Shown: positions 8,849 to 51,381 of the stretch, piece by piece
Layout of the letters: the number at the start of each line of letters is the position of its first letter
Position numbering within the stretch: the first letter of the stretch is position 1
Assembly (NCBI GenBank): GCA_964016885.1
Contig: OZ024755.1
Coordinates: 34,162,001-34,226,000 of the forward strand
Origin: Eledone cirrhosa
Lineage: Eukaryota
DNA length: 64,000 nucleotides
Direction: 5' to 3'
Made by a program: the position numbers and the translations under genes
Notes under the pieces: generated by a model
The model's input: only the letters and a program-made list of their open reading frames with translations
Database searches by the model: none
What the model was told of the DNA's origin: nothing

Positions 8849-8935
8849 ATATATATATAGCGGCAGAACACTGGAAAGTAATATCCATAGTGGTAGAGCA
8901 CTCAGTACATGGGACGAGTTAGGTAGAAGTGGTCA

Positions 8936-8973
8936 CGAGCTGAGGATCCGCTAAGGTGAAACAATTGTTCTCG
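8936..8973 (+). ncRNA. minimal type I hammerhead ribozyme motif
   Basis: CGAG-CUGAGGA-UCCGCUAAGGU-GAAA-CAAUUG-UU/CUCG. Stem I is CGAG/CUCG, stem III is the palindrome ACAAUUGU, stem II is weak. Confidence 0.65.
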
Positions 8974-9024
8974 GTATGGTGAACTAACTGTTGTGTAACC
9001 ACTTCTCTCTCTCTCTCTCTCTCT

Positions 9025-46974: not shown

Positions 46975-47440
46975 AAGACACCCTTCAGTCATGAATGACC
47001 ATGGGATTTGCACCTATGAGGTTCCCCTACGAGGCTCAAGTCAGGGCAAGGTTGTTTGTGGAAGACCTGCAGTCACCCATGCATACCAGTCTCCCCTCTC
47101 CACACCACCGATGTTGTCCAGGGGAAAGGCATTGGCTGATACAGCCTGGCACCAGTCACGCGACTATATATATCATCATCATCACCGTTTTACGTCCGTT
47201 CTTCCACGCTAGCATGGGTTAGACGGGTTGTCCTGTTGTGTGCAGTGTCTGGTCGGCTGACCATGCCTTGCTCATACAGGAACTGATCTGGCTTGATTTC
47301 TACAGCTGGATGCCCTTCCTAACACCAACCTCATTTACAGTGAGTGCTGGGTGCTTTTTCGTGGCGCCTACACGTCCACTTTACAGTGTGGGCTGGGTGC
47401 TTTTTTGCCGTGGCACCTCCACGACCACCTTGCGGTGGGG
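46975..47440. mobile_element. SINE-like repeat followed by an RTE-tail SINE fragment
   Basis: GATGTTGTCCAGGGGAAAGGC...GATACAGCCTGGCACCAG recurs at about 48222, 48998 and 49483. Confidence 0.65.
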
Positions 47441-47579
47441 GATATATATATATTAGGGTAAACATTGATGCAATTCAATTCAAGCACTCAACGTACTTTA
47501 TCCACATAGGAGTGACGGAGTAAATATCGAATAAGGAAAAGCGAAGTAGTTTCAGATGTTCAAGTCCTTTAATAATAAT

Positions 47580-47653
47580 GCTGTGATATATATTTCAGTG
47601 ACGACACTGGCCACACTGTTCTGTGTGCGAGTGTCGTGTCATCATCAGACAGC
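47580..47653 (-). ncRNA. type I hammerhead ribozyme motif
   Basis: Minus strand GCUGU-CUGAUGA-(UGACACGACACU...AGUGUCGUCACU)-GAAA-UAUAUA-UC/ACAGC. Confidence 0.8.
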
Positions 47654-47674
47654 TTGTTATATATATATATATAT

Positions 47675-47751
47675 ATATTTATTAAAATAACAGATTAAAA
47701 TTTAAGCAAAGAATTGCTGCTTAAACTTTAATCTGTTATTTTAATAAATAT
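47675..47751. repeat. fold-back hairpin adjacent to (TA)n
   Basis: ATATTTATTAAAATAACAGATTAAAATTTAAGCA / TGCTTAAACTTTAATCTGTTATTTTAATAAATAT with a 9-nt loop. Confidence 0.9.
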
Positions 47752-48055
47752 TTGCTCTACGGTTCTTATATATTTGATATTTGATATATATTTATCCTTA
47801 TCGAGCCCTCTTTGGATTTTAGTCTTCAAATTTATTATTATTACTATATATATATATATATTCATTTAGGTTTGTTGATTCACCATTGGATAGAACTGGT
47901 CATTCTGTATGGTCAACCTCGATGTAATATTAGGGAGAGCACTCGACGTAATGCAACTCACCCGTCTTCGTTTGTGTTGTTGGTGGTGCGAGTACGGAGT
48001 TAATTATTATAGAATAACAGGAGGCTGGTCTGGTGTAATTCCTTAAAGGTTTATT

Positions 48056-48113
48056 ATACTATGAACATTTCAATGACCGGGTTCAGTATGAATCCGGTGA
48101 CATCATCAGGTAT
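48056..48113 (-). ncRNA. type I hammerhead ribozyme motif
   Basis: Minus strand AUAC-CUGAUGA-(UGUCACCGGAUUCA-UAC-UGAACCCGGUCAUU)-GAAA-UGUUCA-UA/GUAU, followed by AAUAAA. Confidence 0.78.
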
Positions 48114-48275
48114 TCAAAATTTAACAAAGGAATATAACCCATGGGGCTGAAAAGGCAGAGAGACAAGAATATATATTATATATATAAATACATTATATAC
48201 ACAGTATATATACACTATATCTGATGTTGTCCAAGGGTAAGGCAATGGCCGATACAGCCTGGTACCAGTGACGTG

Positions 48276-48307
<32 letters not shown>

Positions 48308-48309
<2 letters not shown>

Positions 48310-48602
48310 AAGTTATGGTGGTACCACAACATCCATGCCCGAAACAAATGAGGTCGTGTAGGTGTCACGACAAAAAAACACACAGTCCACGCTGTAATGT
48401 GACCGTGTAGGCAACACGGTAAAAACCTCCCAGTCCACACTGTAAACATGGTTGGTGTTAGGAAGGGCATCCAGCCGTAGAAAACCCGCCAGACAGTCCT
48501 ATGCGAGCAAGACAACCACTCTTGCCTCAAGTGGGAAAACTCCCGTCCAAACCCATGCAAGCGTGGAACATGGACGTTAATCGATGATGATGATGATGAT
48601 GA

Positions 48603-48605
<3 letters not shown>
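48308..48605 (+). mobile_element. copy of the RTE 3' UTR/tail
   Basis: Highly similar to 40505-40805. Confidence 0.88.
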
Positions 48606-48633
<28 letters not shown>

Positions 48634-48682
48634 ACTGCCAAGACTGGAATTGAACCATCAGCACAGTTGAGGTATGTCATAC

Positions 48683-48768
48683 ATCAATTTATGTATTTTA
48701 TCTGATGAGGGCGTACTGAAAAAACAGCACAGTACCTCCGAAATATATATAATAAAACATATTTTGAT
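48683..48768 (+). ncRNA. type I hammerhead ribozyme motif
   Basis: UUUUAU-CUGAUGA-GGGCGUACUG-(loop)-CAGUACCUCC-GAAA-UAUAUA-UA/AUAAAA. Stem I extends past a bulge (AUCAAUUUAUG/CAUAUUUUGAU). Confidence 0.82.
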
Positions 48769-48799
48769 TACGTGAATGTCTCCATTTATTAATATTTTG

Positions 48800-48835
<36 letters not shown>

Positions 48836-48874
48836 AGTAAGGTACTCAATACATTGCAGAGTATAAAAGTTTTA

Positions 48875-48977
48875 ATATAGATGAGATTCTACAGGACTAG
48901 AACTGTTTCATTCTTTGAAATTCCTGATGATTTCTAAAGAATGAAACAGTTCTAGTCCTGTAGAATCTCATCTATAT
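48875..48977. repeat. fold-back hairpin containing a hammerhead core remnant
   Basis: About 42-bp perfect arms; the loop and right arm read CTGATGA-TTTCTAAAGAAT-GAAAC...GTC. Confidence 0.9.
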
Positions 48978-49235
48978 ATATATATACACTATATATATGA
49001 TGTTGTTCAAGAGAAAAGCAATACAGCTAGGCACCAGCGACAACATATATATATATTCCACACTGTAAATGAGGTTGGTGTTAGGAAGGGCATCCAACCA
49101 TAGAAAACCTGCCAGATAGTCCTATACGACCCAGATGACGGTTACTCGACCTACCTTGCCTCAAGTGGCACAACTCCAGTCTAACCCATGCTAGCGTGGA
49201 AGATGGACGTATGATGATGATGATGATGATGATAT

Positions 49236-49328
49236 ATTTTATTGGCAACATGACCCTCCGAAAGTATAACAATATAAATATATATATATATATTGCTATA
49301 CTTTCGAAGGGTCATGTTGCCAATAAAA

Positions 49329-50420: not shown

Positions 50421-51381
50421 TAAATATTATCACCGATATTAGTGATATCAGATATGTAATTCAGAACTCATCAGATATGTAATAAAGAACTCATCAGATA
50501 TGTAATAAAGAACTCATCAGTTTGATTTTATATCATAGCGGTTTACCAGAGGATGATTTTAAGTGGCAGAAATGGGGTTTGGAGTAACGTTACTCCATAG
50601 AGCATGTAGCTCAGAGATCAAAGTGTCACTCCAGGTTGAGGTGCTACTTCTCTGAATTGAGAGATCACAGCTCTGAGACAATGGACATGGGGTTAGAATG
50701 TCTCAGGACTTAAAGGAAAAGTCTTTGCTAGAGCAAACATCATATTGGTCCATTCATTTGTCTTTAGATTGTATTGCATTGGCAACATAACCTTATTACA
50801 TAAGATGCTGTCTGAGGATGTCACATAACTGGTTGCATGGTCAAAGCATCACATAGCCATAAGCACCATTGAAATAAGTATTACAGTTTTATGAATAAAG
50901 TAATTATGAACATCTACATCAGACCTTCACAATTATCATTATTGTAAATAAATAGGTTGGTGTTAGGAAGGGCATCCAGCTGTAGAAATCAAGCCAGAAT
51001 CAGTTCCCGTCCCACCCTTGTAAGCAGGGAAAAAGCGGACGTAAAATGAAATGATGAAATAGGCGGTGGATTGGCAGTATCGGTAGAGCGTCGGACGCCA
51101 TTCTTTGCAGCAAAGAGTTACGGCCCTTTACGGTCTGAGTTCAAATCCCGCCAAGGTTAACTTTGCCTTTCAACCTTACGGGGTCGATAAAATAAAGTAC
51201 CAGTAATACACTGGGATAATTGCTGGCCTTGTGCCAAAAGTAGAAACAATTATTGTAAATAAACTCTGTCACAGACAAACAAATTATATTTGCAAGATGT
51301 TGAGTGCTTAAATCTAATTGCATCATCATTCACTGATTGGTGTTGCATTTGAAACCCTGATTAGTCAAAATATTTACCGAA

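Follow-up and report, generated by a model that had tools for sequence, protein, structure and literature searches.

Hammerhead ribozymes in stacked 3' ends of Penelope-like elements in (TA)n tracts of Eledone cirrhosa

Penelope-like elements (PLEs) of the Hydra clade and hammerhead-bearing non-coding elements derived from PLEs are the described systems that most resemble the sequences reported here. According to Craig et al. (2021, PMC8557442, section 11, Files S1/S2), Hydra elements are defined by a set of RT/EN motifs (see below for our sequences), (TA)n targeting and a 3' hammerhead, and the curated Hydra-1_Obim of Octopus bimaculoides has both a hammerhead with a palindromic stem III and (TA)n targeting. 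For Poseidon_Ac, Frangieh et al. (2024, PMC11167929) found in vitro that AT-rich DNA is cut on both strands, each of which is then extended, that the start site is alike on both strands, and that the 'tail' is delimited by two internal start sites; the uncleaved RNA is the template, ribozyme mutants still insert, and cleavage needs the protein. In O. vulgaris, PLEs make up 6.83% with 190 families, according to the supplement of PMC13282606. The word 'ribozyme' does not occur in the accessible part of that repeat study, and nonautonomous Penelope is mentioned once in that of PMC6685494. A literature search covering few subscription journals returned neither a study of how abundant hammerheads are in octopus nor one of non-autonomous Hydra elements.

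The type I hammerheads of one published survey share with ours the type I topology, a short stem I, a palindromic stem III and the predicted requirement for a dimer. They are, as here, mostly single and 'probably related to truncated PLEs', and some occur as dual motifs on opposite strands, separated by 100-700 bp. However, they number up to about 9,000 per genome, against about 2.5x10^5 estimated here, and have the G10.1-C11.1 pair where our families A, B, D and R have U-U. Non-autonomous PLEs, namely MRC1 and other non-autonomous Chlamys (PMC8557442), are likewise non-coding and form pLTRs, with head-to-tail insertions in MRC1, and non-LTR retrozymes (PMC7229834; bioRxiv 10.64898/2026.07.22.740005) are also hammerhead-bearing, non-coding PLE derivatives. 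In contrast, our non-coding families A, B and B' are dispersed units of 1.3-3 kb that combine a hammerhead, (TA)n targeting and two 3' ends; B also has a form of about 360 nt with a fixed start, and the sampled loci contained no autonomous family whose 3' end resembles theirs.

The first-pass annotation of the window (the whole 64-kb stretch of DNA analysed here) had proposed a probably unannotated population of elements. At the class level this does not hold, in view of the curated Hydra-1_Obim and the known PLE content of O. vulgaris; the class is known, and what is added here is the scale, the dependent non-coding families and a rule of paired long and short ends. The locus itself is ordinary transposon debris, and its families bear on the open role of the hammerhead in PLE transposition. 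It is probable that the stack was formed by at least five independent insertions of PLE 3' ends in (TA)n, four of them with a hammerhead, likely made by Hydra-clade RT/EN through two-site priming.

Hammerhead motifs in the window and in the genome

A descriptor scan for the elements of the type I hammerhead in order (stem I, CUGAUGA, stem II, GAAA, palindromic stem III, NUH) located motifs at 47580-47653 (-), 48056-48113 (-), 48696-48757 (+), 8936-8973 (+) and 50807-50887. When a longer stem III was permitted, a sixth appeared at 48920-48966 (+), and the type I core (CUGANGA, GAAA, NUH) is present in order in 6/6. The three complete hammerheads reported previously between 47453 and 48980 are therefore real, since 3 motifs were observed in this interval against none in 1,000 dinucleotide shuffles; in the whole window the strict scan gave 5, against a mean of 0.02 (100 shuffles). 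Some details need correction: the span 48683-48768 given for the third motif includes an extended stem I, and the presumed 'core remnant' at 48924 is the complete sixth motif, which has a 16-nt near-palindromic stem III.

The predicted monomer folds of the window hammerheads differ from the active fold and have modest z-scores, between -1.2 and -2.5, which is what minimal hammerheads should give. In an Rfam cmscan of the window, no hammerhead was among the 147 matches at E<=1; standard annotation thus misses all six. Stem covariation among homologues, the lack of which would have counted against the first-pass annotation, was observed for C-like sequences only: in 15 hand-picked rows (four from the motif scan, which makes the analysis partly circular), 96.5% of the cells pair, and double changes occur at 10/21 stem pairs, a number reached by 0/500 shuffles with kinship among the rows uncontrolled. 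These changes fall in stem II (8/9 pairs) and stem III (2/4), and none in stem I. At the base of stem II, C has the G10.1-C11.1 pair, and A, B, D, E and R have U-U. We consider the window ribozymes likely to be inert passengers whose cleavage is predicted to need a dimer or the help of a protein; cleavage, if any, would probably occur on tandem source transcripts.

To estimate abundance, 39 stretches of 10 kb at round coordinates of large contigs (389.8 kb) were scanned with relaxed settings. This gave 57 motifs, spread over 21 stretches; 15 shuffled sets gave 3. When two tandem arrays are each counted once, 33 motifs remain, that is 85/Mb (bootstrap 51-126). Extrapolated from these 389.8 kb to the assembly (3.0 Gb, chromosome-scale contigs), the genome is estimated to hold about 2.5x10^5 hammerhead motifs, with at least one sample match probably false and variant cores missed; this exceeds the largest published count that we met, about 120,000 in axolotl, in the accessible part of PMC7229834. 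The abundance also bears on whether the motifs could have arisen by chance in AT-rich microsatellites or through faulty assembly. A stem I of only 4-6 bp, the inactive monomer folds, the low z-scores and the absence of Rfam matches would agree with such an origin, but the shuffles of the window and of the sample, the double changes, and the recovery of all cassettes as repeats in DNA reads (two runs) and contigs (one run) refute it, leaving it a negligible probability. No single record spans the whole stack; the presence of the repeats in independent DNA runs shows that the families are not assembly artefacts.

The locus had been called a hotspot. Its density, six motifs in 64 kb or about 94/Mb, matches the roughly 85/Mb of the genome sample. 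Around 67 copies of A, B and C, the strict scan found 34 other motifs in 196 kb of flanks (174/Mb, with one being an unmasked A copy), against 67/Mb in the genome sample, and two or more other families lie within 1.5 kb at 8/67 loci. The stack is thus real clustering, but clustering of a kind common in the genome, and the pile-up is ordinary here. A biased sample of loci contains 38 motif clusters, some of which may lie outside Hydra; Craig et al. mention 'a small number' of Hydra families, one in octopus, in the accessible part of PMC8557442.

It had also been proposed that the hammerheads of cassettes A and C could pair in trans through their common stem III, AUAUAUAU. The idea of a functional ribozyme cluster, with A and C RNAs pairing in this way and cleaving host transcripts, would fit with the identity of the two stems III, both perfect palindromes able to form a duplex of 8 bp. 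It would also fit with the local density, which is far above the roughly 0.13 motifs that 1.5 kb would hold if 85/Mb were spread uniformly. However, A and C are on opposite strands, the 8-bp duplex is worth only -3.2 kcal/mol, and AUAUAUAU is found in many families. Furthermore, the same-strand neighbours (A/B and C/R) are not complementary and cannot pair, similar stacks exist at 8/67 loci, and all the pieces are truncated copies of the ordinary sort, sharing 94-100% identity with the closest members of their families. We therefore regard a functional cluster as very unlikely; pairing of A with C is possible in principle, and by this calculation it would be weak and unspecific.

Families of inserted cassettes

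The expectation that the motifs are multicopy and tied to PLEs and (TA)n was borne out by genome copy searches and by their links to pLTRs. Whether they are discrete, non-autonomous mini-elements is answered differently for each cassette. A and B are non-coding and B has the form of about 360 nt, but A, C and R are what remains of longer elements after 5' truncation, with 5' ends that are scattered or vary, and the parent of C is coding.

Cassette C (48634..48803, +) is the short-end 3' pLTR of a coding Hydra-clade PLE with RT and C-terminal GIY-YIG, about 3.8 kb from pLTR to pLTR. Its hammerhead has a 6-bp stem I and stem III AUAUAUAU, with predicted cleavage between 48751 and 48752. A search with C gave 2,053 candidates. 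At loci L071 and L073, C is continuous over 2 kb (93%) with GIY-YIG and RT coding sequence; at L366, C lies at both ends (94% identical to the window) around remnants of a Hydra ORF, and at L368, direct C repeats 3,790 nt apart flank a broken ORF. The order of RT and then C-terminal GIY-YIG between pLTRs is seen in the broken frames of L071, L366 and L368. In a comparison by eye with Hydra-1_Obim and Hydra-1/2_Amil, motifs DKT, YRDD, CxCX5C, GIY-YIG-like and CxxC..E..CxH were recognised in the broken ORFs of L366 and L368, and L366, L367 and L368 have DKT, the CxCX5C linker and CxxC..E..N..CxH and lack CCHH. The RWK position reads GWR in the degenerate copy L366 (the only copy of the C parent that was translated), RWR in L074, and RWK in a family with 781-codon frames. 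A sister family of the parent (L370) has a 750-codon frame. A Pfam search of five RT/EN frames returned nothing relevant. The C parent has its hammerhead near the 3' end and is inserted into (TA)n; with its C-terminal EN and its hammerhead, it differs from Naiad elements, which have an N-terminal GIY-YIG, a CxC domain and no canonical hammerhead. Judged from these sequence features, the parent of C is a coding Hydra-clade PLE.

The 781-codon family is a young Hydra family, found at L268:5476-7818 and at L269-L275. At least 15 open frames of 781 codons were present among the 150 matches listed, and the ten that were translated are identical at 769-779 of 781 residues, so that recent activity of the family is likely and it could supply the protein. 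Its hammerhead-like core has a stem II of about 75 nt and no stem I in cis (39/39 matches counted), and the segment after its cleavage site is complementary to a hexamer inside stem II.

Cassette A (47453..47660, -), with (TA)n on both sides, is the 5'-truncated long 3' end, with a tail of about 75 nt, of a 1,295-bp non-coding PLE-like unit. Hammerhead A has a 5-bp stem I and stem III AUAUAUAU, with predicted cleavage between 47585 and 47584. The search with A gave 1,498 first-look candidates, the best 40 at 99-100% identity, and a 24-mer of its ribozyme has 570 exact matches genome-wide, against none for the reversed control. In 30 loci, one boundary is common to all, and there (TA)n follows in 21/30 and the next unit in 9/30; where the unit body was found, 30/30 loci follow the 1,295-bp unit. 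The longest stop-free stretch of the unit is 74 codons, and tblastn against two Hydra proteins gave no match at E<1. RT/EN frames beside A copies at three loci (L022, L135 and L145) were considered as A's own and rejected; they belong to neighbouring elements. A copies extend to two units (a tandem of 2,584 nt) and have scattered 5' ends, without a peak attributable to transcription start where we looked for one, and two 3' ends about 75 nt apart. None of 137 integrated A copies, counted after rows with a repeat insertion were dropped, has its 5' end at the predicted cleavage site. A pile-up of 5' ends just past this site (unit 1162-1171) was considered as a footprint of cleavage in vivo and rejected, since another repeat inserts into ATTATTATTA there; that repeat, which ends in ATTATTATTA, has entered repeatedly just 3' of the A ribozyme (unit 1165-1186) at eight loci. 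At locus L139, an A copy stops in (TA)n inside the stem III palindrome, which suggests that the (AT)4 of the ribozyme can itself be a target or priming site. Cassette E (50769..50915, +), which the first-pass annotation did not contain, is an older relative of A, about 70% identical, with the complete hammerhead at 50807-50887.

Cassette B (47862..48168, -) measures 307 nt, beyond the 150-260 nt that had been given for the cassettes. It is a long-end copy of the non-coding element of about 360 nt, lacking some 48 nt to the common 5' start, and corresponds to the terminal part of a 2,084-bp non-coding unit; this longer unit overturned the idea that B has no longer parent. Hammerhead B has a 4-bp stem I and a near-palindromic stem III, with predicted cleavage between 48060 and 48059. 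The search gave 4,007 candidates (94-96% identity), and B together with its sister B', a related non-coding unit of about 2.4-3.1 kb, has 5,504 exact 24-mer matches genome-wide (control 0). The longest ATG frame of the 2,084-bp unit is 83 codons, and its tblastn search gave no match. That the cassettes are unrelated was supported: apart from its ribozyme, A does not match the long units of B or B' significantly. Thirty B copies were picked by the segment downstream of the cleavage site, blind to the 5' side: 13 of them reach the first 21 nt of the short form, of which 12 start there and 1 continues into the long unit. Only 2/47 alignment rows that reach the B start have upstream sequence in common. 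The short form begins at the A of TCA(C/T)TT, which resembles the initiator consensus, directly before a hairpin, and a pLTR promoter is therefore the likely cause of the fixed start, as far as its sequence indicates. An HDV-like ribozyme, suspected by eye at this 5' end, was rejected as a plain 10-bp hairpin. The 5' end coincides with the predicted cleavage site in 1/30 integrated B copies, which is compatible with chance.

These data bear on the possibility that the cassettes are self-contained, retrozyme-like mini-elements that cleave from multimers, circularise and reinsert via circular RNA. The A tandems of up to two units are what a circular template would give, the short B form is discrete (12/30 copies start within its first 21 nt and only 1/30 continues into the long unit), true tandem hammerhead arrays exist in the genome, and a 2026 preprint, in its accessible part, derives retrozymes from PLE pLTRs (bioRxiv 10.64898/2026.07.22.740005). 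However, B starts about 157 nt upstream of its predicted cleavage site, no head-to-tail tandem of the short form was found in 44 loci, and longer parents exist; the parent of C is coding, and the 5' ends of A are scattered. Furthermore, the tandem repeats of 150-450 nt with one hammerhead each that characterise non-LTR retrozymes (PMC7229834, as far as accessible) differ from A, B, C and R, which are dispersed and have units of 1.3-3.8 kb where known. We thus consider this possibility improbable for the cassettes and prefer truncated PLE 3' ends. The tandem arrays at L094 and L119 do fit non-LTR retrozymes; their repeat units measure 310 bp and about 422 bp, and 11 and 15 motifs, respectively, were counted in them.

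The remaining pieces of the stack are inverted pairs. Between A and B lies a pair of family F (47680..47850), with the short end on the - strand and the long end on the + strand, truncated 3' of the ribozyme core; the F pLTR flanks a 644-codon Hydra-type frame at L074. Matches to family F (window, L074, L106 and L198) have CAGAAGA for CUGAAGA in 24/24 cases counted, overlapping loci included, a high-copy natural U4A core variant. Family R (48833..48976) has its long end, with the tail partly lost, on the - strand and its short end on the + strand, and is the 3' end of a longer element; hammerhead R has a stem I of 4 bp here and 6 bp in longer copies, and the hairpin of the inverted pair (-73.5 kcal/mol) dominates the predicted fold around it. 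The similar cassette noted at 8860..9005 is an inverted pair of family D and does carry a hammerhead, with the long end on the - strand and the hammerhead and short end on the + strand, but this short end abuts (TC)n. Among the sampled loci fetched, no autonomous partner sharing its 3' end with A, B or R was found. At 49239-49326, two 3' ends are arranged tail to tail around one (AT)n tract; the same end occurs 400-600 nt after a Neptune-like endonuclease at five loci (L021, L063, L080, L095 and L104).

Paired 3' ends and a proposed mode of insertion

The copies end at either of two fixed 3' positions, vary in their 5' ends and often have a 5'-inverted partner, and for A and B partial tandems, 5' truncation, 5'-inverted copies and a tail at one end were all observed. 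Where two copies lie head to head, the long end is found on one arm and the short end on its partner: this was so in 34/34 classifiable pairs of A (11 rows unclassifiable) and 14/14 of B (3 unclassifiable), jointly 48/48, in 6/7 of C (3 unclassifiable; the exception is long/long), and by eye in 24/24 pairs of R (30 loci). Most of these loci were selected with a long-end query, so that one arm was fixed by the query and the partner arm was free. Families H and F have equal ends in two rows each; their short-end windows were misplaced, and both are outside the count. The arms of A pairs differ at 20/442 diagnostic-site comparisons (4.5%), against 37.5% for other copies, and those of B pairs at 3/26, against 28%; the 61 arm comparisons are not independent. 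From the cleavage site to the short end there are 52-58 nt in A, B, C and the 781-codon family; in R, F, D and one other family this distance is 12-45 nt.

The long/short rule and the subfamily alleles common to the arms of A suggest two-site priming on one RNA, and arm similarity could also stem from one source locus or later gene conversion. The sampled copies retain an intact ribozyme junction, and as the 5' ends of integrated copies do not pile up at the cleavage site, the RNA templates were likely uncut. Taken with the in vitro data for Poseidon, the rule favours two-site priming on one uncleaved RNA. In this mechanism, a Hydra protein would bind uncleaved RNA, either its own or non-coding A or B RNA in trans, and cut both strands of a (TA)n tract; the two DNA ends would then prime reverse transcription on the same RNA, at two fixed positions inside it that are separated by 75-145 nt, and premature stops would yield short ends or head-to-head pairs. 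The (TA)n left on both flanks of each insertion would likely attract further insertions and so build the stack, and the hammerhead would be a passenger or a binding landmark. Poseidon_Ac (PMC11167929, in the accessible part) is alike in its two internal start sites, AT-rich target, uncleaved template and absence of ends at the cleavage site, but belongs to a different clade and has adjacent start sites, and a rule of one site per DNA end was not among the results found there. That the start site of Poseidon_Ac is alike on both strands counts against our explanation.

Hydra-clade PLEs as described in the accessible part of PMC8557442 share with our elements an RT with C-terminal GIY-YIG, DKT, the CxCX5C linker and the absence of CCHH, as well as a 3' hammerhead with palindromic stem III, (TA)n, partial tandems, 5'-inverted copies and a tail at one end. 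The ribozyme listed there for Hydra-1_oBim differs from every window ribozyme; the elements here are 3.1-3.8 kb long with tails of 75-145 nt, whereas Hydra tails are 30-40 nt. Against our preferred explanation, the C parent, at about 3.8 kb, is longer than the '<3 kb' towards which Hydra elements tend, although this size does not define the clade, and RWK is replaced by GWR in L366.

The non-coding families A and B likely hitchhike on a PLE protein. As an autonomous family with the 3' end of A or B was not found in the sampled loci, Hydra is proposed as their helper on the grounds of architecture and ribozyme type. An alternative is that another retroelement, such as a Neptune-like PLE, Naiad or a LINE, mobilised A and B. 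The loci fetched contain no Hydra family with 3' ends matching A or B, and a Neptune-like coding family that also ends in (TA)n is present in the genome, including the tail-to-tail pair of the window, which counts against our explanation as well. However, the U-U at the base of stem II in A, B, D and R is shared with most Hydra hammerheads in File S2 (PMC8557442, as far as accessible), the spacing of 52-58 nt from cleavage site to short end is equal in the coding C and 781-codon families, and the two-ended, 5'-inverted and tandem architecture argues against a LINE. A helper other than Hydra is thus improbable, and Hydra-made insertion remains our preferred reading.

We tentatively suggest, as a possibility, that the quarter-million motifs were spread by Hydra together with a guild of non-coding parasites, in which the hammerhead is a landmark for protein binding and not a cutter; a dimeric RT/EN would measure from it two downstream start sites on the uncleaved RNA, one per DNA end. 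If so, this would account for the tail of PLEs and for 5' inversions, and also for the mobilisation of unrelated non-coding RNAs that need only a hammerhead-bearing end, and the short form of B would be a self-propagating equivalent, in the PLE class, of a SINE. The genome offers intact young Hydra ORFs and non-coding substrate RNAs of 0.36-2.1 kb, and the near-absolute long/short rule with arms that share alleles is directly testable in vitro.

Very high-copy SINE-like repeats, presumably octopod SINEs, are interleaved with the stack at 47180-47440, 48308-48600 and 49035-49215.
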